Source: Eledone cirrhosa (lineage: Eukaryota). From it: 64,000 nucleotides of DNA. Under the pieces are notes generated by a model. It did not search any database. It had not been told where the DNA came from and saw only the letters and a list, made by a program, of their open reading frames with translations. Shown here one piece after another: positions 8,010 through 57,430 of this stretch. Position 1 is the first letter of the stretch. Every line of letters starts with the position of its first letter. The position numbers and the translations under genes were made by a program. The stretch is from positions 124,001 through 188,000 of the forward strand of contig CAXHJY010001591.1 in NCBI GenBank assembly GCA_964016885.1. The letters are read 5' to 3'.

Positions 8010-8825
8010 TAATTGTATGATGTGTGCATACAAACAGCAATATTGCATGGTAGTAAGACCTGAGCACTGTGTGCAGGAGACTTGCAATTGGAAAGAAATG
8101 AAGTTTGCATGCTCCGATGGATGCGTGATAGTAATATACGTGAATGGCAAAGCATAAATGAATTGAGAGAGAAGCTAGGCATAAGAGGAATCAAATGCTG
8201 TGTGCAGGATAGGAGACTACGTTGGTATGGACATGTGATGTGTATGAAAGATGACAGCTGCCTAAAAAGGTGCAGAGCACTCAAAGTCAATGGAAGCTGT
8301 GGAGTGGGGAGACCCTGGAAGATTTGGGATGTGATAAAAGCTGACCATGCCCAATTGCATCTCTCAAAGGCGATGACACAGGACCGAGATCTCTGGCCTT
8401 ACACAGTAATACAGAAGACCTGAAGCATATATACAGTATGCTCCACCCCACCCTCCCATACATCTATGACGACAGTGCAATGTATGCATCCAGTAAAGCT
8501 TCCAACCCACACTGTAAAGTGGTTGTGTAGGTATCATGGCAAAAAGCACCCAGCCCACACTGTAAAGTGGTAGTATAGTAGTCACAACAAAAAGCACCCA
8601 GTCTGCACTGTAAAGTGGTCATATAGGTGTCACGACAAAAAGCACCCAGTACTCACTGTAAATGAGGTTGGCATTAGGAAGGGCATCCAACTGTAAAAAC
8701 CAACCCCAAATCAGTTGTGTATGAGCAAGACATGTTCACCTGACCTAGCATTGCCCACAACAGGACAACTCATCTAACCCATGCTAGCATGGAAGAATGG
8801 ATGTAAAATGGTGATGATGATGATG
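8010..8825 (+). mobile_element. RTE-clade LINE 3' end
   Basis: LERNEVCMLRWM...RLRWYGHV...GRP; 3' UTR with tandem aaaagcacccag..cacactgtaaagtgg units; (GAT)n tail. Confidence 0.85.
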
Positions 8826-9119
8826 CATACATTGACACTGTATAGAAGCATAAAAGATGATAGAGAAGTACCTGTGTCAGTTTCAATGATGCGTGTCCTA
8901 GTTGATTGGTCACTGGAATAGCCAGCTCCTGAGATTAAGGTGTATGTGGCTGAGTATTCCACAGACAGATGTACTGTTCATGTAAATCTCATGGAGATAC
9001 AACATGATACTGTATGACAAGGCTGATTGTTTGAATTACAGCTACAGTCCATCTTACGGGCTTCCTAGCAGTTTCCGTCTACTCAATTTCACGAACAAGA
9101 CATGAGTTGACCCAAGGCT

Positions 9120-10576: not shown

Positions 10577-11970
10577 CATGCAATGGGTATAGCGAGGAAT
10601 TTAGCATACAGGTTGGGGTCCACCAGGGCTCTGTTCTTAGCCCTCTCCTGTTCATTATAGTATTGCAGGCAATAACAGAGGAGTTTAAGACCAGATGCCC
10701 ATGGGAACTCCTATATGCGGAGGATCTCACATTTATAGCTGAATCTATGGTGGAACTAGAGAAGAAATTCCAAACATGGAAGCAGGGACTAGAAAGAAAG
10801 GGTCTCAAAGTCAACCTCAGAAAGACTAAGGTCCTCGTAAGTAGACAAGAAAACAGAGCCCAGATCCCCTCAGGGAAATGGCCTTGCTCAGTATGTAGGA
10901 ACTCCATCCTCTGCCCCAAATGCAAACAATGGGTACACAAGAGATGGAGCGGGATCTCAGGAAGCTTAACTAAGAATGTAGGCTTCACATGTAGCAGCTG
11001 TGCTGGGACAGCAAGCAGCAAACAGCCACAGGAAACAAGTACCACCAATCTCTGGGAGGGCCCTGTAGAAACAGTAGACAGCTTTTGCTACCTAGGTGAC
11101 CGAATTAGCAGGGAAGAGGAGTGTTCGGAAAGTACAGTAGCCAGGGTAAGAATGAGATGGAAGAAGTTCAGGGAGCTACTGCCACTGCTAGCTGCAAAAG
11201 GCCTTCCCCTCAAAATGAAAGGCAGACTGTATGATGCGTGTATACAAACAGCGATGTTACATGGTAGTGAAACCTGGGCACTGTCTGTAGAAGACTTGCA
11301 TAGATTAGAAAGAAACGAAGCCTGCATGCTCCGATGGGTGTGTAATAGTAATATACGCGAACGGCAAAGCATAAATGAATTGAGAGAGAGAGACTGAGCA
11401 TAAGAGGAATCAAATGCTGTGTGCAGGAGAGGCGGTTCCGTTGGTATGGACATGTGATGCGTATGAAGGATGACAGCTGCATAAAAAGGTGCAGAGCACT
11501 AGAAGTCAATGGAAACCACGGAGTGGGGAGACCCAAGAAGAACTGGGATGAGGTGATAAAAGCCGACCTTACCCAATTACCTCTCTCAAAGGCGATGACA
11601 CATGACCGTGACCTCTGGCATCACGCAGTAATATGGAAGACACGACATCCCATGGGTACAAGCTGAAGCATATAGGCAATATGCCGCCAGCCCCTCCCAC
11701 TGCAAAGTGGTCGTGGAGGTGCCACAGCAAAAAAGCACCCAGCCCACACTGTAGAGTGGACATGTAGGTGCCACGGAAAAAAGCACCCAGCACTCACTGT
11801 AAATGAGGTTGGTGTTAGGAAGGGCATCCAGCTGTAGAAATCAAGCCAAAATCAGTTGCCGTATGAGCAAGGCATGGTCAGCCAACCGGACACTGCCCAC
11901 AACAGGACACCCCATCTAACCCATGCTAGCGTGGAAGAACGGACGTAAAACGGTGATGATGATGATGATG
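10577..11970 (+). mobile_element. RTE-clade LINE, 5'-truncated
   Basis: VGVHQGSVLSPLLF, LLYAEDL (YADD region), KWPCSVC...HKR zinc-finger insert, RFRWYGHV, family 3' UTR and (GAT)n tail; frameshift at ~11390. Confidence 0.92.
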
Positions 11971-12053
11971 ATATATATTAGAATGGAGGCAGTAAAAACC
12001 AGTTAGACGATTACTCATCAGAGTACTCAATACTTGGGGTAGTAGAGTGGGTA

Positions 12054-13830: not shown

Positions 13831-13984
13831 TTCATTCAAATGGTGAAATACAATAGCTATCTAACCTACTTTTTAATTGTTAACTTTAGCTACTTGTAAT
13901 ATATGACTAACAAGAGTAAGCATGTACTTTCATCATACATTAAACTTAAAATGATCTTGCTTTGTGTGTGTATATACTATAAAG

Positions 13985-14264
13985 TGTTCATTTTGGTGCC
14001 ATGACAAAAAGTGCCCAGCCCATACTGTAAAATGGTCGTGTAGGTGTCTCGACAAAAAGCATCCAGCCCACACTGTAAAGTGGTCATGTAGGTCTCACGA
14101 CAAAAAGCACCTAGTACACACTGTAAATGTGGTTGGCATTATAAAGGGCATCCAGCTGCAGAAACCAAGCCCAAATCAGTTCTATATGAGCAAGACATGG
14201 TTATCTGACAACCCATCTAATGTATGCTAGCGTGGAAAATGGACATTAAATGCTGCTGATGATG

Positions 14265-14270
<6 letters not shown>
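13985..14270 (+). mobile_element. RTE 3' UTR or RTE-tailed SINE
   Basis: Same tandem aaaagca.ccagcccacactgtaaagtgg units, gggcatccagctg hairpin and GAT tail as the RTE copies. Confidence 0.7.
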
Positions 14271-14341
<71 letters not shown>

Positions 14342-17139: not shown

Positions 17140-19170
17140 TCATCATCATCATCATCATCACCGTTTTACGTCCGTTCTTCCACGCTAGCATGGGTTAGAC
17201 AGGTTGTCCTGTTGTGTGCAGTGTCTGGTCGGCTGACCATGCCTTGCTCATACAGGAACTGATATGGCTTGATTTCTACAGCTGGATGCCCTTCCTAACG
17301 CCAACCTCATTTACAGTGAGTGCTGGGTGCTTTTTCGTGGCGCCTACACGTCCACTTTACAGTGTGGGCTGGGTGCTTTTTTGCCGTGGCACCTCCACGA
17401 CCACCTTGCGGTGGGGGGTGTGGGGGCATATTGTCTATATGCTTCAGCTTGTACCCATGGGAGGTTGGGTACTCTGTATTACTGCGTGACGCCAGAAGTC
17501 ACGGTCGTGTGTCATTGTCTTTGAGAGGTGTAATTGGGTAAGGTCGGCTTTTATCACCTCATCCCAGGTCATCTTGGGTCTCCCCACTCCACGGTTTCCA
17601 TCAACTTCTAGTGCTCTGCACCTTTTTATGCAGCTGTTATCCTTCATACGCATCACATGTCCATACCAGCGCAACCGCCTCTCCTGCACACAGCATTTGA
17701 TTCCTCTTATGCTCAGTCTCTCTCTTGATTCATTTATGCTTTGTCGTTCACGTATATTACTGTTACACATCCATCGGAGCATGCAGGCTTCGTTTCTCTC
17801 TAATCTACGTAAGTCTTCCACCTTCAGCGCCCAGGTCTCACTACCATGCAACATCGCTGTTCGGATACATGCATCATACAGTCTGCCTTTCATTCTGAGG
17901 GAGAAGCCTTTTGCAGCTAGCAGTGGTAGTAGTTCCCTAAACTTCTTCCATCCCGTTCTTACCCTAGTTATTGTACTTTCTGAACACCCACCTCCGTTGC
18001 TAATTCAGTCACCTAAGTAGCAGAAGCTGTCTACTGTTTCTACAGGGCCCTCCCAGAGATTGGTGGTTCTTGATTCCTGTGGATGTTTGCTGCTTGCTGT
18101 CTCAGCACAGCTGCTGCATGTGAATCCTACATTCTTAATTAAGCTTCCTGAGATCTTGCTACACCTCTTGTGTACCCATTGTTTGCATTTGGGGCAGAGA
18201 ATGGAGTTCCTACCTACACCTTTCCTACATACTGAGCAAGGCCATTTCCCTGAGGGGATCTGGGTTCTGTTTTCTCGTCTACTTACAAGGACCTTAGTCT
18301 TTGTCATGTTGACTTTGAGACCCTTTCTTTCTAGTCCTTGCTTCCAGGTTTGGAATTTATTCTCTAGTTCTACCATAGATTCAGCTATGAGTGCGAGGTC
18401 ATCAGTATACAGGAGTTCCCATGGGCATCTGGTTTTAAACTCCTCCGTTATTGCCTACAGGACTATGATGAACAGGAGAGGGCTAAGAACAGAGCCCTGG
18501 TGGACCCCAACCTGTACGCTAAATTCCTCGCTATACTCATTGCTAATCCTAACTTTGCTGACTGCTCCCCTATACATGGCTTGTACCGCTTTCACAAGCC
18601 ATTCATCTACTCCTAGTTTTCTAAGAGCCCACCAGATTACAGCACGTGGAACTCTGTCAAAGGCTTTCTCAAGGTCGACAAATGCCAAGTAGAGTGGCTT
18701 ACTTTTAGCTAGGTACTTTTCCTGTAATTGCCTCACAAGGAAGAGGGCATCAGTGGTGCCTCTTCCTGGTACAAACCCAAATTGCATCTCGTCTATTTTC
18801 ACCCGGTCCCTAATCAGCTGTGCTATAACTCTTTCTGTTACTTTCATGACCTGGTCCATCAACTTTATACCTCTATAGTTTCATCTATCTAGTGCATCGC
18901 CTTTACCTTTGTAGCAGTTGACAATGATGCTACTGCACCAATCTTTTGGTATGGCCCCTTCTAGTATTACCTGGTTAACGATACGTGTGGTTATAGTGTG
19001 ACCTACAGACCCAGATGCCTTCAGCATCTCGGCAGCTATACCCGATGGACCGGTTGCCTTCCCCATCTTCATATCTTTGATTGCCTTACTTACTACGCTG
19101 CTGCTGACTTGTACTGCTGGTCCCTCTATAGGGTCTACTTGGGGTAGGGTCTCTTCTTCCCATGCATTCT
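17140..19170 (-). mobile_element. RTE-clade LINE, 5'-truncated RT region (few disablements)
   Basis: GKATGPSGI, QFGFVPGRGTTDA, FVDLEKAFDRV, QGSVLSPLLF, YTDDL, RLRWYGHV, 3' UTR and (GAT)n tail. Confidence 0.95.
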
Positions 19171-39269: not shown

Positions 39270-42112
39270 GTCAGTGCTACAATTGGGTGGGAAATGACAA
39301 TGGGTAGATAAGGTAATCTCAGTGAACAGGGTCAGCGCAAGAATCATTAAACTCCGACTAGTCCTGAATAAAACAATTGCCACAATAATATCAGCTTACG
39401 CACCCCAATCAGGGTTGCCAGATGAACTTAAGGATAGGTTTTACAAGTTCCTAATGCACACTACTGCTCTAACAAACGACAAGGACTTCCTAATCATTGC
39501 AGGAGATTTTAACGGACACGTTAGTAAACACCGTAACAGCTTCTATAGAGTCCATGGAGGCCACGGGTTTGACACAAGAAATGAAGATGGCTTCAGGCTT
39601 TTAGAATTCTGCGACGCCAATGACATGTCGATATGTAACGCAAACTTCAAAAAACCCGACAAACATCTAATCACCTATAGATCAGGGGAGCACTCCAGTC
39701 AGATAGATTTTATCCTCATCAGAGGACGTGATAGATGGATGGGCGTAAACACAAAAGCCTTCCCTAGTGAGGAATGTACCTCCCAACATAACTTAGTTGT
39801 CAGCGACCTCACTGTCAGAACTAGACAAACTTGGAAACAGAAGCCAACCTGGAGAAGAAAGATCTGGAAACTGAAAGACTCCTCAGCCAGTAACAGATTT
39901 AAAGATATTTTACTCCTATGACAGTAAAGAAGAACAGATAGAGACATTCAATGTAGAAGAGCACTGGGAGTTCCTAAAAAATAACTTACTAAAGGCGACG
40001 GACGAGATCTGTGGTTGGAGCAAGACCACAGGAAGGAGGAGAGTGACTTGGTGGTGGAACAATAAAGTAGATGAAGCAGTTAAGGCTAAGAGACAGGCAT
40101 GGAAAGAATGGAAGAATGGGGCAAGCAAGGTACATTACATAGAGACCAGGAGGGAAGCTAGGCTACAAGTATACTTAGCTAGAAGGGAAGCGGAGGATAG
40201 AAAATTCAAGCATGTTTTGCAATGCAAGGACCAGAAACAGGAGGTGTTCAAGATTGCGAGGCAGTGTGTCAGAGAGAATTGTGATGGCATTGGAGAGAAG
40301 TGTATCCGGAATGATAAAGGTGAGCTTGCCCTAACAAGTGCTGAGAAGAAAGATGCGTGGAAGAGCCATTATGATAGATTACTAAATGAGGAGAATGCAT
40401 GGGAAAAAGAGACCCTACCCCAAGTGGACCCTATAGAGGGGCCAGCAGTACAAGTCAGCAGCAGTGTATTAAATAAGGCAATCAAAGATATGAAGATGGG
40501 GAAGGCAACTGGTCCATCGGGTATAGCTGCCAAGATGCTGAAGGCATCTGGGTCGGTAGGTCACACCATAACCACACGTATCATTAACCAGGTAATACTA
40601 GAAGGTGTCATACCAAAGGATTGGTACAGCAGCATCATTGTCAACTGCTACAAGGGTAAAGGTGATGCACTAGATAGAGGAAACTATAGAGTTATAAAGC
40701 TGATGGACCAGGTCATGAAAGTACCGGAAAGAGTTATAGCACAGTTGATTAGGGACCGGGTAAAATTAGATGAGATGCAATTTGGGTTTGTACCAGGAAA
40801 AGGCACCACTGATGCCCTCTTCCTTGTGAAGCAGTTACAGGAAAAGTACCTAGCTAAAAGGAAGTGCCGCTCTACCTGGCATTCGTCGATCTGGTAAAAG
40901 CTTTACACAGACTCCCTCGTGCTATAATCTGGTGGGCTCTTAGAAAACTAGGAGTAGATGAATGGCTTGTGAAAGCTGTACAAGCCATGTAGAGGGGAGC
41001 AGTCAGCAAAGTTAGGATTAGCAATGACTATAGCGAGGAATTTAGCATACTAGTCGGTGTCCACCAGGGCTCTGTTCTTAACCTTTTCCTGTTCATCATA
41101 GTTGGAGGAGTTTAAGACCGGATGCCCATGGGAACTCCTGTATTCGGATGATCTCGCACTTATAGCTGAATCTATGGTATAACTAGAAAAGAAATTCCAA
41201 ACATGGAAGCAGGACTGTGGGAGGGCTCTGTAGAAACAGTAGACAGCTTCTGCTACCTAGGTGACCGAATTAGCAGCGGAGGTGGGTGTTCAGAAAGTAC
41301 AATAACTAGGGTAAGAACGGGATGGAAGAAGTTCAGGGAACTACTGCCACTGCTAGCTGCAAAAGGCTTCTCCCTCAAAATGAAAGGCAGACTGTATGAT
41401 GCATGTATCCGAACAGCAATGTTACATGGAAGTGAAACCTGGGCGCTGAAGGTGGAAGACTTACGTAGATTAGAAAGAAACGAAGCCTGCATGCTCCGAT
41501 GGATGTGTAATAGTAATATACACGAACGGCAAAGTATAAACGAATTGAGAGAGAGAGACTGAGCATAAGAGGAATCAAATGCTGTGTGCAGGAGAGGAGG
41601 TTGCGTTGGTATGGGCATGTGATGCGTATGAAGGATGACAGCTGCATAAAATGGTGCAGAGCACTAGAAGTTGATGGAAGCCGCAGAGTGGGGAGACCCA
41701 AGAAGACCTGGGATGAGGTGATAAAAGCCGACCATACCCAATTGCACCTCTCAAAGGCGATGACACACGACTGTTACCTCTGGCATCACGCAGTAATACA
41801 GAAGACCCAACTTCCCACGGGTACAAGCCGAAGCTGAAGCATATAGACAATATGCTCCCACACCCTCCCACTGCAAAAAAGCACCCAGCCCACATTGTAA
41901 AGTGGACGTGTAGGCGCCATGGAAAAAAAGCACCCAGCACTCACTGTAAATGAGGTTGGTGTTAGGAAGGGAATCCAGCTGTAGAAATCAAGCCAGAATC
42001 AGTTCCATATGAGCATGACGAGGTCAGCCGACTGGACACTGCCCACAACAGGACAACCCGTCTAACCCATGCTAGCATGGAAGAACGGGCGTAAAACGGT
42101 GATGATGATGAT
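39270..42112 (+). mobile_element. RTE-clade LINE (APE endonuclease plus RT) with stops and an internal deletion
   Basis: ISAYAPQ, IAGDFNGHV, SQIDFIL, SQHNLV (APE); RT motifs at 40500-41170; deletion at ~41215 (KQGL joined to WEGSVET); 3' UTR and (GAT)n tail. Confidence 0.95.
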
Positions 42113-42339
42113 ATATACTATTGTATTTTCGCAATAAAGGCTTTATCTGACATAATTACCTCACATAATATTGAATCTATGAGATTTTGATATTATTTAT
42201 TTTGAGAACAATACCTTAACATCAGTATGAGCTGCCAGTTACAGCCAATTTGAACAGAAAAAGGTGAGAAAATTCTCACTGGATACGACCGGTTTAAATG
42301 CTAAAGGGTTAAACTCAGTTTGACTTATTCTCTAGTCTT

Positions 42340-43850
42340 TTTTTATGGATTCAGTTATTAAGGTCCAAATTATCCTCATAGAGAAGTTCCCATGGACAGC
42401 CAATCTTAAACTCCTCTGTTATGGCCTGAAGAATTATGATGAACAATAGTGGGCTGAGAACTGAACCTTGATGAACTCCTACTTGCACCTTGAATTCCTC
42501 ACTGAACTCACTTCCTATCCTCACTTTACCGACAGCTCTTCTGTACATGGCTTGCACTGCTCTCGCAAGCTATTCTTCTACACCTAATTTTCTTAAGGAC
42601 CACCAAATAACAGATCGAGGTACTCTATCAAAGGCCTTATCTAGATTAATAAAAACTAGATATAGCAGTTTATTCTTTGCTAGGAACTTCTCTTGTAGTT
42701 GTCTCACTAAGAAGACAGCATCTGTAGTACTTTTCCCAGGCATGAAACCATACTGCATCTCATCTAATTTGACTCTTTCCTTAATTAACTGCACTATAAC
42801 TCTTTCTATCACTTTCATAACTTGGTCGATTAGTTTTATTCCTCTGTAGTTGCTCTTTTCTAGAGCATCACTTTTACCCTTGAAGCAATTTATGATTGTA
42901 CTACTGCGCCAGTCATTGGGTATGACTCCTTCCTATATTACCTAATTGGCTATACAGGTTACTAGATTGGCTCCTACTTCTCCCAATACTTTTAGTATCT
43001 CAGCAACTATCTCTGATGGTCCCATGGCTTTACCATTCTTCATCTCTTTGATTGTTTCTTTGATCCTATAACTGTTAATTTCAATAGCTGGTCCCTCTGT
43101 AGGGTTAGTTGGGGCAAGTCTCTCTTCCTCCTATTTATTCTCTACATTCATCACCCTCTCATCGTAACATTTCCAGGCCACTTTATTTTGAGTATCTGTG
43201 GTACTAAGTGCACCAGTCTCATTTCCAACACACTTTTCCCCAACAACATCCTGATTCAAACTGACAGACTGCCTTACAGTATGGAACACTTCATACCTCT
43301 GATCCTCATGTCACAAGACATTGGCAAACTTTCTTTCTTCAGCCTCTCTCTGAACTGTGTTTGCCTGTTGTCTAGTTTCTCTCTTAGCTATCTGGTAACG
43401 GTCTCTGCTCCCCTCCATTTTTTTAGTCTTTCCACATCTGTCTCATAGCTGTAATGGCTCTATCCGCTGTGCTGTTCCACCACCAGGCCACCCTCTGTTT
43501 GACAGTGCTCCAGCCACATGTCTCATCAGTAGTTCACTATAGGCTATCACTAATAATTTCTAATTGTCCTCTATGTCATGTATTTAACTTGGCAGAGTTT
43601 AATGAGAAAGGACAGCAATGTGTTCAGCTGTGGTAGAACCACATCTAGTCAAGCTTTGTAACTTCAAATGCATCCTGTAGGGCCTTTCTAAACCTATATT
43701 TAACAGAAAGGTCTTTTAGCTTGCAAACCTTCTGTTTTCATATTTTCCTGCATATTTTGTTCTGTCTTGTGTTTTTCCTAATGTCACCAATAACTAACTT
43801 GTGTTGGATGGCACGTTCTTCCCTGGGGAAGACCTTAAAATGTATTACTG
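42340..43850 (-). mobile_element. RTE-clade LINE fragment (diverged subfamily)
   Basis: QYGFMPGKSTTDAVFLVRQLQEK, LDKAFDRV, QGSVLSPLLF, LLYEDNL. Confidence 0.9.
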
Positions 43851-45905: not shown

Positions 45906-48432
45906 CTGCAAATGAAAGAAGGTAATTGTTAAGTGAAACAACAGGTGTATCTTTTGGTTGTTATTGTTGTTATGAGATATTATAATGTCATGGTGTTACT
46001 TATTAAAGAAAGGATTGCTTGTAGGAAAAAGGGGCTGTAATAAGAAAGATGGTATATATCATTATCATCACCATCATCATCATTTAATGTTCATTTTTTT
46101 CCTACTAGCAAGAGTTGGACAGGCTGTCACAGATCAAGTCAGTACTTGAGCAGAGCTACAGATCTCTCAGATGGGCAAGGAGCCTGTATCTTTCTTACAT
46201 ATGTTTCAGCACTTTACGGGTGCTCAGATGGGATGGGGGGGGGGGGGGGCATCATGCTTACATGTATTCAGGCACACTACCAAGTGTATTTTATTGTGGT
46301 GCCATCATTTGAGAAGTTATCATGTCTTTGACACAGCTAAAGAGTTCTCCCAACTCTTTATTTGGCAGGTTTTTTATGGCTGGATGACCTTCCTATTACC
46401 AACCACTTTATAGAATCAGAATAGAACCCGCAGCCTGTCAGGGAGGTCAGTAGCCCTGCTTTAGTACAGACTCGATTTAAGAAGACCCATCCAACCCTAA
46501 CTGGCAGGGAAAGTGAATGATGATGATGACAATGATGATGATGATGTACTCCCTAATATCTATCCTTATCATTATACACCCCATCGATGAACCCTTCCTA
46601 AAATCCTGACACACTGGTAAGTATCCCTCTTCTACACTATTGACCACCCTATCCATCCCCCCTCTTCTATTACCCCCTAGTAGCTATTCTCCCCCTGCCC
46701 TGGTGACTACCCACCTACACTATCAGTGGAAAGGTTGGCATCCTTACTCTCCTACTCATCACTTTGTCAAATCTCACCACAGTTGTCATACACCCATAAC
46801 ATCATTCTTATCTTTCTCCACAGACCCCCCTACCCCACTGTAGGGCAGAGAGGTGATTGACAATAGGAAGAGTATCCTTGCTGTCGAAACCATGCTGAAA
46901 AGAATGGAGAGGAACCTTTAGTTGTGTCAACGGTGCAACAACCTCTCTACTGTTGGTGCTCTACATGATAAGCGCACCCAGTACACACTGTAAAGTGGTT
47001 AGCGATAGGAGGGGAAGCCAGTCATAGAAAACTTGCTAAATAAAAGGTTGGGAGGATACTTCAGTTGTGTCAAAGACAATAGCCTCTCTAGTGGTAGTGT
47101 CATGATAAAATAAACTTGGTAGAGTGTGGGATCGTATGTAATCGCGATGCCAGCCCCCAACCCATCTGAGAAGTCAGTAGCCCCACTTGAGTATTGACTT
47201 TGTGAAGACATGCTCAAACCTTGCCAGCAGGTAAAGCAAACGTTAAATGATCATGATGATGATGATGGTGTGTGTGTGTGTGTGATAGATTTTGTTTTCA
47301 GTAGACAAAAAGGCCTTTTAGTATTTAGTTGCAAACCATTACATTATTAGTTCAAATCCCACCATGGCCAACTCTGCCTTTCATCCCTCCAGGGTCAAGA
47401 AAATAAAGTATCAGTTAAGTACTGGGAAATTTTAAATGAATAATCAATCCTCCAAATTTGTAAAGTTGTTATGTGGCCCCGGGTTGAACGTGAATGAGCC
47501 AATTTATTATCAAAGGCATTCCAACTGTGACCACATTTTTTTTTTCGGGAGGTGAGTAGAACTACATTATCTAATACATTGTTTTCCAAAGTGGGCGGTG
47601 CTTTGATATCTGGGGGCGGTTGGGGGGGGGGGGCGACAGTGTAGTATTAAAAAAAGAAAAAAACAACCTATTTATTGTTTAAATTTTAAACAATAAATAG
47701 CTTCTTTTTTTCTTTTTTTTACAAATATATTGCATATGTATATTAAGCATTTATAATAAAGACATCTACTATATAAATTTGAAGTGGTCGGACGTTGTAT
47801 GTGTAGGTGTAGTCGGATAAACGTCGAAACGGCTTGGTGGAATGCAGCGAAAATTTAGTTATGCAGAATGACCCGAGGATGCGTTGGGTCGACTTTCAAG
47901 CTACAAGCTTCCATGGTTACGGAGAAAATCGATGGAACAGGAATTTCCTATTCAAATTTAACTGAGAGTAATCTGTGAACGCAGAAGTAAATATTTTGAG
48001 AAACGTTACAACCGAACGAAAACAGGAAGACGATGTTTTGGTTCGTGAAAACGTTCCCTGGCAATGAACGGAAAAAATCGAGGATAATACGTCGTTATGT
48101 GGACCATGAAGAACAATTTCATGCAAAGACTAAGTTTATGGTATAAATGGAGTCGTTAGACTAATATTCTATTTAAAATAACAGAATGATTTCCAGCCCC
48201 GGAGTTTAAGAATGATGTAAATAAAATTGAAAACGAAAATGACAGAGGTTATTAAAATAGTAAAAGTAAATAGTGAAGATTTAGGCCAGTACATACGTAT
48301 GCCAAGACGGACATACACATACATATGCACACACAAATACATACACCCCCCCCCCCCACACACACACACGCGCGCGCGTATGTATAAACCTTATGCATTT
48401 GTACAGTATTTTCACCAAACTTAAGACATAGG

Positions 48433-50272
48433 TATAACAAAATACTGGATTGTATGAATATAAAAAGACACTAGGTTGTGTATATAACGTTTAATTAACA
48501 AGTTGAAGTTATGTAGAAAAGTATAGTTGACAAGTCAATGAAAGTAGATGAAAGAATGAAGTAAAGTTATTTGTTACCGTTTTGAAGTTAGCTCGCAAGA
48601 GACCATGTTAGGGTTGGCAGTCGAACGCGCCTGGCCGAAGGGCCAGGCAGGTTAGAAGGCCAGGAGCAGAAAGGCAAATGAGAGAGAGAGATCTCTCTGA
48701 GTATCCCTTTTATAGGGTCCAAGACGGAAGTGACAAAAAGGGTTCTGCCACCCCCAACGGGAAGTAACTCCAGCTACTTCCTGTCTAGAGAGCGTTAATC
48801 TATTGGTGATGTGATCGTCACAACAAGGGAGGCAACTCTTGCTACATTATCTCCCGCCAGATTTTTAAAACATAAAAATCGAATGAATCATGTATGAAGT
48901 AAGATGGCGAGCATGTTGTAACACCAAAGTCCAAGCATGAAAATTACGAAAAAAATAATGTTTGCAATAAAAGGAAAACAGCAAAATATAAGCATGCAAA
49001 AATCAATGATAGATATCAAGGTAGCCAACCGCTCTTGGCCAAAGAACGACTGGACATCTATCTATCCATCACCCAAAGATACAATGTAATCAAAGTAAAA
49101 GAAGAGGTCAAAGTTCAAAATACAGTTCACAGGTGTGCAATCACATGACGGCAGGAAAGAAAGTGTGTTCCAGAGAATGAATGCAGGTGGTTTCTGGTCT
49201 GGGTATAACGTGAAATTTCCAACCCCCGAAGGGATTTTCTCACAGGAAGAGTGCTGCAAAAATAAATTCTCTGGCTTGTTCTGCTGGTTTTGGTTGTTGA
49301 TGAAGCTGTGTTGCTGTTTATGTTGTTGTCTCGCGGAGTGAGCGTATTCGATGTTTAAATTCACAGTAACAAATTTTCCAGAAAAAATGAGTTGCGCAAA
49401 GTGCTAGAAATAACAGCCAAAGTTGATGGTAGATGTTGAGAATGCGTTGACCTGGAAGGGTCAAGAGGCCAGCGACCAAAGAAATAAGCATTCTGAACAA
49501 ATGCGCAGTTTTCAACGGCAAATTTACGAGGTAAATTTTTAAACCGGCAAATATGAGAATATAGCTTAAGGCTGGAGAATCCTTGGCAAGAAACATTATC
49601 TATGGCGTGTGTTATCTCAGCGAGTCGAGATGTGTGCTCCTCACACGTGCCGAAACAAGGTTAAAGTCAAGTTGAAAAAAAAAAAATTTCTATTGCGTGA
49701 GAAAATGGCGCGAAAATGATAGTGCAACAGGTCGTTGGCAGCTATTTTGAAAAATTTGTGTGGGAACGTGATAATATGATGAAAAAGAAAGAAAGGCTTC
49801 ACTTGGTATAACAAATATCGCGAGTTCAATTTTTTTGTGAACAATGAAAAAAACTTGGTGGAAAGAATAAGCAATAGTTGAAATTCAGCGAAAATAAATG
49901 TTCATGTTGAAAAAGAGTCTGTCTGAACGAGAATTTCACATGTGCGTGTGTTCGTTTCTGTGTCTGCGAATTTTTCCTAGTTTGTTAATAAAGTTTGCTG
50001 CGTATTCGAAATGTTGGTCGACACATTCCAACTAAAATGGGGTACTGTTAATTAATTTTTTTTATATATATTCACACAACACCAGATCCTATCATTTTTT
50101 TATTTTTTTCGGGGTCACCACTTATAACAAAATACTGGATTGTATGAATATAACAAGACACTAGGTTGTGTATATAACGTTTAATTAACAAGTTGAAGTT
50201 ATGTAGAAAAGTATAGTTGACAAGTCAATGAAGGTAGATGAAAAAATGAAGTAAAGTTATTTGTTACCGTTT
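48433..50272 (-). mobile_element. Non-autonomous LTR element (TRIM/LARD-like): complete 3' LTR 48433-48846, non-coding interior, truncated 5' LTR 50123-50272
   Basis: 50123-50272 repeats 48433-48582 with ~3 differences. Minus-strand PBS TGGTGACCCCG at 50110-50120 directly follows the LTR end GTTATA; PPT ctggcgggagataa precedes TGTAGC at 48846. No recognisable retroelement ORF inside. Confidence 0.85.
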
Positions 50273-50760
50273 GAGTGCGGATGTGGTACCTCCATGATCT
50301 TATCTGCCAGCTCGGCGAGTCCTTCTATGGTGGTGGACTCCCTGGTGGATGCTAGTACAACTTGTGTGGCAGAAGGTAAACGCTGGAGGAAGAGTTGCTT
50401 GAAAATTTCATCCGGGAGTTTATGTTCCTCCAGGAGCTGCTTCATTCGCCGTAGGAGTTGTGTCGGCTTTTTATCTCCTAATTCCTCCGATATGAGGAGC
50501 TGGTGCAAACGTTTCTGCTGCGACTCCGACGTCCGCTTAACTAATGTTCTTTTAAATGTGTCATATGACACAGAGCCGGGTGGTGCTAAAATGAGGTCTC
50601 GAACCTCATTCATAATCTCCGGAGACATCGAACCGATGACATGTGTGAGACGGGATGCCTCGCTAACGATCCGGTTCGATGCGAACTGCGCTTCGATGTG
50701 CGCGAACCACAGTGTTGGATCGTGCACCCAGAATGGTGGAATCCTTAATGTAAAGACCGC
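50271..50760 (-). repeat. Inverted duplicate of the gag 5' region
   Basis: Reverse complement of ~50868-51358 with few substitutions (HIEAQ/HIDEQ, SMSPE/SMFPE, LISEE/LILEE, LEEH/LGEH, AEL/A*L). Confidence 0.95.
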
Positions 50761-53700
50761 CGTTACAAATGGTGACCCCGTAAAACAGACACACAACCTT
50801 CTGATCATCCACTACAAACGATGTCTCTAGCACACGACGATTCATCAGCGGCAGAAATGGCAGTCAGGGCGGCATTTACATTAAGGATTCCACCATTCTG
50901 GGTGCACGATCCAACACTGTGGTTCGCGCACATCGATGAGCAGTTCGCATCGAACCGGATCGTTAGCGAGGCATCCCGTCTCACACATGTCATCGGTTCG
51001 ATGTTTCCGGAGATTATGAATGAGGTTCGAGACCTCATTTTAGCACCACCCGGCTCTGTGTCATATGACACATTTAAAAGAACATTAGTTAAGCGGACGT
51101 CGGAGTCGCAACAGAAGCGTTTGCACCAGCTCCTCATATTGGAGGAATTAGGAGATAAAAAGCCGACACAACTCCTACGGCGAATGAAGCAGCTCCTGGG
51201 GGAACATAAACTCCCGGATGAAATTTTCAAGCAACTCTTCCTCCAGCGTTTACCTTCTGCCACACAAGTTGTACTAGCATCCACCAGGGAGTCCACCACC
51301 ATAGAAGGACTCGCCTAGCTGGCAGATAAGATCATGGAGGTACCACATCCGCACTCAACTTTAGCGAATGTGACGCCAGCCGTGCCTCCCACCAATCCTT
51401 TCCTTCAGCCATCCAGTGCCACAGAGATGCCCGATCTACACCAGTTACTGGCACAGCAGGCAACACAGATACAGGCCTTGACGCACCAAATTCAGGCCTT
51501 GTCACTGGGCAACCCTGCCACGCGTCGGTCCAACAGTCGAACTCGCCGATTTGGTGGTCGCTCAAGAAGTCCGAGCGCATCTCGGGATTCACCAGAAATG
51601 TGTTGGTACCACCAAAGATTCGGGAGACGAGCGCAAAAGTGCAGCCATCCCTGTTCATTTGTTTCGAAAACGAATCAGGGAAACGACACAGCCAGAAACT
51701 GAATGCGACGGACGTTTCTGGCCCTCATAACCAAAAGTCGCCTATTTTTCATTCAGGATCGCGTCACAGGTTTCCTGGTCGACACTGGTGCTGAAGTCAG
51801 CATCATCCCGGTTTCCTGCGTTCCTGGAAAAAGGAGAGAGACACCAGCCTGGCTCCAGGCGTGAATCACTCACATATTCCGACCTACGGAGAACAGTCCC
51901 TGACACTAAATTTGGGACTACGCCGCACTTTCCAGTGGGTATTCGTTGTGGCTAAGCTGCCGACCCCTATTTTAGGAGCTGATTTTCTTCAGCACTTCTC
52001 GCTGCTAATGGATCTGAAAAACCAACAACTCGTTGACAACTCCACTGGTCTCGCTGTGCGCGGCATAACCGCTAGGACAGCCACAGTCAGTCCAGTCATT
52101 TCACGATCGACAACAACAACCCGGCACAACCACATCATCAACAAATACCCAGACGTAGCTCGACCACTATTCAACGCTTGCCCTGTAAAACATGACGTCA
52201 CACACTACATAAAAACACACGGCCCACCTGTCGCTGCACGACCTAGAAGGCTACCACCAGACCGGCTGAAGTCCGTCAAACAAGAATTTCAGCACATGCT
52301 GGATCTCGGCATCATACGTCCGTCCAGCAGCAACTGGTCCTCACCCATACACTGTGTACCCAAGGAGACGTCGAACGACTGGCGAATCTGTGGCGACTAC
52401 CGTGCACTGAACAACTGCACCGTTCCTGATTCTTATCCAGTGCCTCATCTACAGGACTTCTCTAGCTCGCTGCACGGGGCTCGCATATTTTCGAAGATCG
52501 ATCTTGTGCGAGCTTACAATCAGATACCCGTTGAGCCCGCAGATATTCCAAAGACCGCAGTCACAACACCCTTTGGAATGTTCGAATTTCTGCGTATGCC
52601 TTTCGTCAAATCCATCAGATTTTCCACAACCTACATCTCTCCGCAAACTGCGAGAATTTCTTGGCCTGGTAAACTTCTACAGAAGATTTATACCCCACTG
52701 TGCAGAGACAGCCCAACCACTCACAGATTTGCTGCGGCAGCGTACAACCAAAAACGCAAACATCAAGCTCAGCGAAAAAGAATGTACCGCTTTCGCTGAG
52801 TTGAAGAAAATGTTGTCCGAGGCTACAATGCTGAGTTACCCCAAACCTGACGCCCCAATGTGTTTATTGACTGATGCATCCGATTTCGGAGTTGGAGGTG
52901 TGCTTCAAAAACTCTCTGGCGATATTTGGCGACCTGTATCTTTTTTCTCTAAGCGATTAAAACCCGCCGAAACTAAGTACAGCACATTCAGTCGTGAATT
53001 ATTGGCAGCATACCTTGCTGTCAAGCATTTGCGACACATGCTAGAAGGTCGTGTGTTCTCTATATACACCGACCACAAACCACTAGTGTACGCGTTCAAC
53101 GCCAAGCCTGACCGACACTCACCCAGGGAGGTCCGACATCTGGACTTCATTTCTCAGTACACTACTGATATTCGGTACATTAAGGGTGCCACCAACTCAG
53201 CAGCTGATGCCCTATCGCGCATGGAGCTTAACGCAATCCACACCACTGCCACTATCGACCTCCAGAGGATTGCAGCGGATCAATAGAATGACGAGGAACT
53301 GCTGCAACTCCGGAAATCATCCTTGAAATTGAAGGAATGCCCGCTGCCCTCTTCTTTGGGTTATATTTGGTGCGACATCTCCACAGGCCACGAGCGCCCA
53401 TACGTGCCCCGGAAACATCGACGCGACATTTTCTCGGCACTGCATTCTCTGGCACATCCTGGCGTCCACGCCACGCAGAAACTGATGGTTGCCCACTTTG
53501 TGTGGCCCAACATCAACAAAGACACCCGCGAATGGGCTAGGAACTGTATCGCGTGTCAGAAGGCGAAAATTCACCGGCACATCAAAGCCCCGATCGGTTC
53601 TTTCGCAACACCTGATGCACGGTTCCAACATGTGCATATAGACATCGTTGGACCTTTGCCTCCTTCTCACAACTACACTCATCTTCTCACATATGTCGAC

Positions 53701-55682
53701 CGATTTTCTCGCTGGCCAGAAGCTTTTCCCCTGACGGATATTACTGCGGAAACTGTCGCCAAAACGCTAGTGTTTCACTGGGTTTCGCGTTTCGGCACAC
53801 CCGCGACCATCACTACGGATAGAGGACGAACTGACTCGTCTCCTCGGGTGCAAACACATCCGTACAACAGCGTATCAACCTGCCGCTAACGGCATGGTAG
53901 AACGCTTCCACCGCCAACTAAAAGCATCTATCAAGGCTTACGAAGACTCCACTAACTGGTTCGAATACCTCCCACTCATTCTTCTTGGTATTCGTTCCAC
54001 TGTTAAGGAGGGAGTCGGACATTCTCCGGCTGAAATGGTGTATGGCACCGTACTCACTCTACCCGGACAAATGATTACTCCTGTTTCGACACAAGAGCTT
54101 CCAGACCCTACAAAATATGTGCACCGTTTACGGTCATCGATGTCGCATCTGTCTCCTTCAGCCCCTAAACAACAGCACGTTACTTCACACATACCAAAAG
54201 ACATCGATACATGGACGCATGTTTTCGTTAGAAATGACGGTATTCCATCGCAACTTCGTCCGCTGTATTCCGGGCCCTATAAGGTGATACAGAAACGCCC
54301 TAAGTATTTCGTCCTCGACTTCAACGGGAAACGAAATACCGTCTCCATTGATCGTTTAAAAAAAGCGTTCATAGAACAGGAATTGCCACCAGTACCCACC
54401 GTTTCTCCAGCAGACTCACCAACAACTTTGCCCGACACAAACACGACAAATTCTGCACAACCCCGACACACCAAATCTGGAAGAACAGTCCGATGGCCCA
54501 CGCGATACGTACAAGTTTATCGGGTAAGTACAAATTATGCATCTGGTCGACATTTCGGCTAATTTGTACATTTCAACGAATCGGCCAATTTCTGTGGTCA
54601 TGAACTATTGCTACATACAAATCAATTAACTCTGTGCATCACCCACATCAAAAGAACAGACAAAAGAACATTTTTCCGTTTTTATGAAATGAACGAACTT
54701 TTAATCAACAAACTTTTCGTACGAACATTTTCAATTTTATGTAACATCACTACATTTTCCTGCATGTAAATTTCTTTTGCTTTGCATGTTTTCTTTCATT
54801 TCTCCTGTTTGTAAATGACTTTCATGTGTTTTTTTATTTTTACTGATTTTCTTCAACAACACACCTAGTCATGCCTATCTTCATTTCACATGCACCTAGA
54901 TCGTTCAATCTTAGCTTTCTCACTGGAAGGGGGTTACTATAACGGCGGCGAAGATTCGAAACCGAATCTGAGCTTTCCCGCCTCTGGGACAAACCGTGGT
55001 AACTTGTTTACGCTCAAGAGACTAACCCCTTGGGAAGAGGCTAAACACAGGTCAGAGGTGTTTACGCCTGACAGAAAATAGGTCAGAGGATATATCCATC
55101 TTTCTGACTTGTTTACGCTTGGCAAACTAATCCCTTGGGAGACTAACCAAAGTTCAGAGGATATATCTATCCTTTTAACTTCAATTCTTATAAATACAGG
55201 GGTTGTTCACGCCCCGACAGAAAAGAAGTGATATACAGACAAGACAAGTCGCATTTACAAGCTCTCGTCACGAAAAACCAGTCTGCCAATTATTCTCACC
55301 TTCCTGGCTGATCGCTGACTCCTGCAATACAAATAAGTAAATATACAGATACGCACACACGCATTCATAGTGAGTTCAGTATTTTTACACGCACCATTCA
55401 TTTCTGTTTACACATATTGTACCTTTCTGATACAGTACAAATTATATTATAATCGTATTCTGTGATATTTGAATTTACGTGGCTCGAAGAGCCACCAAAT
55501 TATTGTATGAATATTTTGTGTTATTGATTTTATCATTCAATATTCAAATTGAATATTGTTATAATAAAATAAACTGTGTAACAGCACAAACCTGGTATTT
55601 TTCTTTACATCGAAACCACCATACCAACAGTTACATCCATCCATCCACTTATCGTTACAACCACACATAATATTCCGTTACA
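50760..55682 (+). mobile_element. Ty3/Gypsy LTR retrotransposon (defective): 5' LTR remnant, PBS, gag, PR, RT-RH, IN, PPT, 3' LTR 54938-55682
   Basis: ccgttaca-aa-TGGTGACCCCG (PBS 50770-50780, complementary to the tRNA-Trp 3' end); gag RIPPFW...CWYHQRFG; protease [10 protein letters not shown]; [27 protein letters not shown]; RH TDASD, YTDHKPL; IN HSLAHPG...CIAC, HIDIVGP, TDRG, VERFHRQLK, GPY; PPT ggaaggggg; LTR TATAACGG...CCGTTACA. Contains stops, frameshifts and an RT deletion. Confidence 0.95.
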
Positions 55683-56510
55683 TAGGTTACTTATGTACTC
55701 CGGATGGTCATGGGCACTTTCATTTTTCCAGATATTGATTATAGGGGCCTCCCGGTAGATAACCCCCTTTAACCATTTCCTTGGAGTCGACTGAAGAACT
55801 GCAGTGCAATGCAACAAAACGTCATAACGTCTGGAGTTCGCAACCGATTTTCACAAAACTTGACACATGGGCTACGTTTGTCCTACAGATTGTAGTGACT
55901 GAGATGGTCGCTTAGCAACTAGCAGTTGCCTCCCCTTAACAACTCTTCAGAGAGCGGAGGCAAGATACATCCGGTCACAGACGCGGACATGAACAGACGT
56001 GAAAGGATTCGCTCCTAAAAAAAATATTGACCATGCTGGCTTCGTGAGGGACTATGTGAAAATGCCCTCCTTCGGATCAAGGACGCCACGATATCCGACT
56101 AATAGGCATTCGCTTATTCCTTCGTTATTCCTGCACCGGAGAATATAATTACACTACTTCTATTAACCCACAAGATATGTTTGAATTGACATTGTACATA
56201 ATTTATTAAATGTCGCATTTAATAAAGGATCGTTGATTTTTTTACTGCCCCCCCCCCCCCCCCCTTCTGGAGTCATTTATTTCTACAAAGAGAAACGATG
56301 TATTGTCCATTCATCGACAAACATTCTTGTGAACTCTCAGAATTGGCACATATTGAGTAGGGGACCCCTGAGAGCAGGAACCCCCTTTTGGAAAAAGCCG
56401 ATGATTTTGTAAAAGTATAGTTTTCGAAGTAGCACTGAAGTATTGACATAAATGGTATACACAACTGCTATTTAATACCCGAGCAACGCCGTGTACCTCT
56501 GCTAGTCTAT

Positions 56511-56567: not shown

Positions 56568-57430
56568 CTTATTGGCAAAATCACATTCTGTTTACATCTA
56601 TGTTACTAATGATAAACTAACATCATCACCATCATTGTTTAATGTCCACTTTCTCTGCTAGTAAGGTTTGGATGTGTCATCACAGACTGATGGTGGGGGC
56701 GCTGAGGGTATTACGTGGCCGTGGCCCCAAAAGTTTGAGAACCTCTGATCTAATACATCCTTTCCTTATTTATAAAACTGTAGGCTGGGGTTGGAAGGAG
56801 ATTTAGGAGCTATTTCTAGCAGATTGAGTAGTGGGATTGAAAAGCAATGTTTATTGTGATTTTTCTACTCAAGCACTATCTAATAATTTTTTTTTTCCCA
56901 ACTAGACATCAATATAATTTTATTAAGGCATAAATGTCAACATGATATTACAAATAGAAAGAGAAAAAAGAAAAAGAAACACACACACACACAAGCAGGT
57001 AATCAACACATCTAGGACTACATACAACAAAAGGCAGAGCAAAAGATAGCATGTTTCTAACATAGGCGCAATATCAAAATCTGGTTAAAAGCAATTAATC
57101 GATTAAATTGATTCAGTACATGACTGGTACTTTATTTTACTGATCCAGGTTAAAGGGTAAGATCGTCTGGCCTTTTCCCATCAAGTCTGGATAGTAGGGA
57201 TGACTCCAGAATTGAAGGGATACTGATTCTAGTCCGCCTAATTAAGTTCAACTCGGTAAGACGAGCGAAGCGGCTTAAGTATCATAGAAATGACTGAAAA
57301 GGCCAAGAACAGAGAGAGAGAGAGTCAATCAGACGACGAAATGTCAAATTAAGCAGAGGTGATAAATATGTTACATGAAAACTTACTTCGTATTAGTATA
57401 CATACGAATAATAATATTTAAAAATGTTAC

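Follow-up and report, generated by a model that had tools for sequence, protein, structure and literature searches.

In a 64,000-nucleotide stretch of the Eledone cirrhosa genome (GenBank assembly GCA_964016885.1, 3.0 Gb; contig CAXHJY010001591.1, positions 124,001–188,000; hereafter the window, whose own numbering is used for all positions in it), we analysed a composite insertion made of two long terminal repeat (LTR) retrotransposons. A non-coding element on the minus strand (A) and a Ty3/Gypsy-type element on the plus strand (B) both point their U5 ends outward within one 4-bp target-site duplication (TSD), TAGG. The composite, whose structure is known from the assembly (an unplaced contig of 259 kb), probably arose as a single chimeric cDNA, formed when reverse transcription snapped back and switched templates between A and B packaged together, and then inserted by ordinary integration. 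The anatomy, the TSD, the origin of an inverted bridging patch from the lineage of this B copy, and the presence elsewhere in the genome of sister insertions with mismatched ends are direct observations.

An initial annotation of the window had proposed that two different LTR elements lie head-to-head and share one TSD, and comparison of the flanks together with counts of empty sites and filled junctions bore this out. TAGG at 48429–48432 (plus strand; exact match and empty-site comparison) and at 55683–55686 (plus strand; exact match and filled-junction pattern) brackets the whole composite, and the right-hand direct repeat is longer than TAGG, reaching ACATAGG. When the flanks were rejoined and compared with other copies of the surrounding host repeat, they were contiguous without a gap in 11 of 11 copies, with a single TAGG in ten and a substitution there in one. 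Moreover, exact patterns searched genome-wide occurred 894 times for the empty site and once each for the left and right filled junctions, both of them at this locus, and the junction between A and the patch was found only here (40 scored of 627 candidates). The host-copy counts and the single filled junctions thus show that the TSD is real, that the site is no hotspot and that the composite has not multiplied; the possibility of one chimeric element present identically at many loci was rejected, its junction and both filled-site patterns being unique. A flank search for a second haplotype or an empty allele returned this contig as its sole full-length match.

Element A comprises, on the minus strand, a complete 414-bp 3' LTR that bounds the composite on the left with its U5 end (48433–48846), a non-coding internal region with a polypurine tract adjoining that LTR (48847–50109), a primer-binding site (PBS) with a 2-nt spacer (50110–50122), the PBS core being the same as in B, and a 150-bp remnant of the 5' LTR (50123–50272; LTR positions 265–414). 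The LTR termini are TGTAGC...GTTATA, and a 4-bp TSD was present in 15 of 17 informative A copies, three further copies being uninformative. The longest frame of the internal region is 113 amino acids, without a Pfam match; with two LTRs, a PBS, a polypurine tract, a TSD and no coding capacity, A is a non-autonomous LTR element. Its 5' remnant differs from the 3' LTR at 3 of 150 positions, and one private base is common to both. The remnant starts (50272, LTR position 265) where homology to other A subfamilies resumes (263–268), possibly at a pause or recombination point and possibly by chance.

Element B retains, on the plus strand, the last 8 bp of its 5' LTR (U5 end, 50760–50767), a spacer and PBS (50768–50780), a gag-pol region broken by stops, frameshifts and internal deletions, in which Gag is followed by reverse transcriptase, RNase H and integrase (50821–54562), and a complete 745-bp 3' LTR whose U5 end is the right terminus (54938–55682). 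The PBS, putatively that of tRNA-Trp, was matched to no tRNA gene, the window holding none. The LTR termini are TATAAC...GTTACA, 4-bp repeats flank 12 of 15 solo-type B LTRs (29 other loci), Gag carries the motif CX2HX9CX3C, and Pfam matches to reverse transcriptase, RNase H and integrase stand in Gypsy order (the protease stretch was outside the scan). Judged by its Gag motif, TSD length and domain order, B is a CsRn1-type Ty3/Gypsy element, the CHCC Gag motif and a 4-bp TSD being given as marks of the CsRn1 clade in the available part of the source (PMC2582038). The LTRs of A and B gave no alignment to each other. Thus the outer ends are the U5 ends of two unrelated 3' LTRs and the inner 5' LTRs are cut to about 150 and 8 bp, as first annotated, and comparison of the families confirmed the termini and a 4-bp TSD for both.

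The two remnants are bridged by a fold-back patch (50271–50761, minus strand), an inverted copy of B gag positions 50868–51358 that is 98% identical to their reverse complement and meets its neighbours through microhomology of 2–4 nt toward A and 2–5 nt toward B. One base common to patch and gag is seen in none of 29 other B copies, and the patch was therefore copied from this B element or its immediate source. Leaving aside two mismatches at the priming junction, 8 of 484 positions are different between the arms, and the derived base is in gag at six of these and in the patch at two. Divergence was 2.0% between the A LTR pieces (interval 0.4–5.7) and 1.7% between the patch arms (interval 0.7–3.2), with overlapping intervals, and private-substitution rates over seven parts of the composite (0.6–2.0%) were alike for A and B and too noisy for ordering events. 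When the 3' end of the B minus strand was folded (without shuffle control), no strong hairpin stood ready at the switch point (−9.2 kcal/mol).

The termini of the two families mirror each other. The U5 end of A read inward is TATAAC, the normal U3 start of B, so the outer six bases of the composite are those of an ordinary B element (TATAAC...GTTACA); conversely, the U5 end of B has TACA in common with the normal U3 end of A. TATAAC occurs within the B LTR at base 1 only, and TACA within the lost part of the A LTR at its end only. A and B thus have in common the PBS core, the TSD length and mirrored termini; these features, together with two A/B chimeras, hint indirectly that A may be mobilised by the proteins of B.

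Sister insertions and B breakpoints elsewhere in the genome

We searched the genome for LTR ends to which an 18-nt PBS extension is joined and obtained 21 loci, most of them subfamilies with a longer PBS and several of them aberrant products. A B insertion at C2:86464747-86468325 is bounded by B U5 ends on both sides, with TATT as its 4-bp repeat, and has internal pieces rearranged around the PBS; its right LTR piece begins at LTR position 282, about 30 nt past a TATA box, a start that suggests minus-strand strong-stop DNA. At C5:58527920-58528710 lies a palindromic A insertion (LTR, 18-nt tRNA-like extension, inverted LTR; arms 95.6% identical) with two U3 ends and a GTAG repeat. At C3:205185173-205188015, A LTRs surround a B PBS-gag segment and rearranged B pieces, with an AATA repeat and the same 18-nt extension, and at C3:311741997-311743143 a B LTR is followed by the 18-nt extension and then an A LTR, with a TATA repeat that is weak evidence of a TSD since the locus sits in a TA tract. 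Mismatched ends with 4-bp repeats thus occur as U5+U5 (B/B), U3+U3 (A/A) and U3+U5 (B/A), in addition to an A-bounded element with B gag. The copied tRNA found in three of these insertions is, in our analysis, a signature of reverse transcription; at HIV-1 junctions, tRNA was read as aberrant second-strand transfer, according to the available part of that report (PMC12657518). The sister loci point to recombination of A with B during reverse transcription and to clean integration of mismatched ends.

Several other loci came to light in these searches. A and B subfamilies with a much longer tRNA-like PBS, itself nearly identical in sequence between them (L160, L163, L168-L172, L174-L176, L178 and L179) apparently inherited it from an over-copied primer. 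Adjoining A and B pieces at C2:149.460-149.472 Mb proved to be an ordinary nest of a whole A in B gag, and those at C3:260.71 Mb an ordinary nest of A in a B 5' LTR; both candidates were rejected. C1:197.34 Mb also holds an ordinary nest, of A or an A-like element in B gag/LTR.

The 8-bp remainder of the B 5' LTR recurs, in kind, in B copies that have no A partner. Among 30 B gag loci, window included, the 5' LTR is kept in 26 and lost in four, with breaks 8 (window), about 5, 3 and 0 nt into U5 and none in the other ~735 nt; for the three loci outside the window, such clustering has a probability of about 2e-6 under uniform breakage. A genome-wide pattern scan gave 18 matches, consisting of these four B loci, one more at 0–1 nt and 13 ordinary LTR variants. 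The border of LTR and PBS is where a retroviral minus strand meets the RNase H-cut end of its RNA template. One of the B loci broken at the PBS (L112) carries an 11-nt fold-back right at that site.

At C3:290.8336-290.8390 Mb, a B copy without 5' LTR and with an 11-nt fold-back at the PBS has a possible TATG repeat about 20 nt upstream, which could be chance. At the fifth locus broken at the PBS (C4:169.123-169.141 Mb), an inverted B LTR with a tRNA-like extension lies 2.4 kb beyond the 3' LTR, and another repeat family is interleaved.

Origin of the composite

In the sequence of events that we favour, tRNA-primed minus strands of A and B would each start with a U5 end in a particle holding both RNAs. 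The B minus strand would run out of template 8–10 nt past the PBS, where the RNA had been cut by RNase H, and would miss the second strand transfer; its 3' end would then prime in its own gag, some 100 nt off, copy 491 nt, switch through 2–4 nt of microhomology to the A minus strand and be completed through the PBS, the internal region and the 3' LTR of A. An identical product would result if this route started from the A side. The resulting duplex, with two U5 ends, would be integrated as one donor in one normal integrase step and, because these ends together read TATAAC...GTTACA, the normal B termini, B integrase would handle it like any ordinary donor. Co-packaging and template switching have been proposed for a multi-element insertion with one TSD (PMC1950507).

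Several points weigh against an origin from one chimeric cDNA. The junctions in the window contain no tRNA copy, so the tRNA signature comes from the sister loci; the TSDs are AT-rich at three of the four sister insertions, the genome loci retrieved included no empty site for any of five sister loci, and the B transcription start near LTR position 282 is placed by TATA boxes only. The fifth B locus broken at the PBS, at C4:169.13 Mb, is a tangle of nested sequence with flanks that do not match, and may have another origin; a scan of one A subfamily for copies whose 5' LTR is lost at the PBS gave three matches, all ordinary. Host break repair, too, typically leaves fold-back patches with microhomology. 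Since TATAAC and TACA are confined to LTR ends, sequential repair could reach exactly these termini, and sequence alone cannot tell joining before strand transfer from joining after it.

The initial annotation had proposed that one intasome took one end from each of two cDNAs and that the free ends were then resected and joined by repair. A single integrase event with a U5 end of each family is still the likeliest source of the TSD; separate cDNAs acting in trans are not needed and fit worse. Concerted integration of two donors, in which A and B U5 ends from separate cDNAs share one intasome and the inner ends are later joined by host repair (a hybrid form included), is in our estimate unlikely, although it accounts for two proper att ends with one family-length 4-bp TSD, is compatible with the microhomology junctions and has a precedent in Ty1 integrase, which in vitro carries out concerted insertion of two separate U5 oligonucleotides, according to the available part of that study (PMC8487063); moreover, a one-ended B cDNA, with a single usable end, could obtain its second in trans. 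In its pure form, however, resection must halt within 10 of 747 nt (about 1%), where B copies without A also break, so that the 8-bp remainder can hardly be the chance stop that the resection step made of it. Furthermore, the sister insertions with mismatched ends carry reverse-transcription signatures, and their joining through copied tRNA shows that joining before integration occurs in this genome. It is likewise unlikely that the locus is a germline record of one intasome pairing the cDNAs of two families, a one-ended B cDNA being rescued in trans by the non-autonomous A and the event belonging to a genome-wide class that takes in U5/U5, U3/U3 and cross-family insertions.

Sequential models stay alive because A and B share terminal bases, a feature that the initial annotation missed. 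One element could have integrated normally, giving the TSD, and a later break in its 5' LTR could have been repaired by capture of the cDNA of the other through TATAAC (B first) or TACA (A first). Such a course, which we hold to be quite unlikely, would leave the TSD exact, since these microhomologies are found at the termini only; divergence estimates for A and the patch cannot order the events, and A does enter B by ordinary nesting elsewhere, even if simple nesting, as originally argued, does not suffice to explain the composite. Yet it requires a break, a cDNA capture and a long resection, with the break again at the PBS if B came first, and the scored copies include no close genomic donor (best A LTR 95.7%, best B LTR 97.6%). 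One private base predates the patch against eight later differences, so any lag was probably brief. It is very unlikely that A and B inserted independently at the same TAGG, head-to-head with a middle TSD, followed by a central deletion and fold-back repair. A TSD between elements is documented for Drosophila transposable elements in the available part of 10.1101/158386; here, however, the site is no hotspot, 894 copies are empty, no other A or B end lies there and no middle TAGG is left, while the unrelated LTRs provide no inverted repeat to destabilise the centre and the break at the PBS stays unexplained. An assembly artefact, which the small 259-kb unplaced contig and a structure known from the assembly alone might suggest, is extremely improbable: the two inverted arms are ~2% apart and each has private changes, whereas fold-backs in reads would give identical arms, removal of the composite at its outer junctions leaves exactly the empty site, and the flanking gene region is single-copy. 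A search of sequencing runs listed nine, none of which contained half of the sequence words looked for.

Genomic setting

The host repeat is a non-autonomous Helitron-like element whose left part (47765–48428, plus strand) starts with TC after A and is 93–95% identical to 11 other copies, and whose right part (55687–56505, plus strand) ends in CTAG before T. Over its span (47765–56505) it therefore has 5' TC and 3' CTRR termini placed between A and T, which we take to be the marks of a non-autonomous Helitron. Within it, 437 bases (55891–56327) are missing from the 11 other copies and are probably a separate insertion. A minus-strand gene resembling steroid 5-alpha-reductase appears to surround the composite, which would occupy one of its introns: a minus-strand exon near 57430–57650 matches PDB reductases (E 2e-11), and minus-strand regions at about 38400 and about 26670 are, by motif, presumably reductase exons as well. 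Another dispersed repeat, with 48-bp internal units, occurs in both orientations at 8165–8830, 10580–11972, 13976–14295, 17413–19170 and 40392–43054.

Comparison with known systems

Nothing indicates that the composite has spread or gained a function, and it appears to be a dead end. Together with its sisters, it indicates that the integrase takes family-type ends in any pairing (U5+U5, U3+U3 or cross-family) with a clean 4-bp duplication in the germline, and it provides sequence evidence for the co-packaging of a non-coding element with an autonomous partner, which is usually merely assumed. Such loci preserve intermediates of reverse transcription, such as the end of the minus strand past the PBS and the extent of tRNA copied, and would be overlooked by LTR finders that require two direct LTRs.

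Like the CsRn1 clade as described in the available part of PMC2582038, B has a CHCC Gag motif and a 4-bp TSD; it differs in an LTR that begins with TA, not TG, and in having a non-coding partner with mirrored termini. The double-insertion dimers of McGurk and Barbash likewise have a pair of elements sharing a single target site, at times in head-to-head orientation, but in the available part of that study they are same-family dimers with an inner-junction TSD and a site preference (10.1101/158386), and our composite shows neither inner TSD nor preference. Ty1 integrase in vitro likewise inserts two U5 ends in concert; the substrates were short oligonucleotides, and the available part of the work is silent on one versus two molecules in cells (PMC8487063). 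Closer in mechanism are HIV-1 proviruses with premature or aberrant first- and second-strand transfers, whose tRNA-marked junctions resemble those of the sister loci, although the cases in the available part of the report are single internal deletions, with no inversion mentioned and no products of two families or with two U5 ends (PMC12657518).

We found no report of an inverted, two-family insertion with two U5 ends in the literature searched, outside which lay most older or subscription papers and supplements. The nearest relatives are the template-switch complexes of Sabot and Schulman, which combine two parent elements in one TSD and were likewise attributed to co-packaging and abnormal template switching (PMC1950507). 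Those complexes join elements of the same family in direct orientation, with three LTRs and matching outer LTRs that have normal U3 and U5 ends, whereas here the partners are unrelated and inverted, both ends are U5 and the bridge is a fold-back; the composite works alike without being a strict member. It thus appears to be an inverted, two-family variation on the known template-switch complexes, and new in that form.

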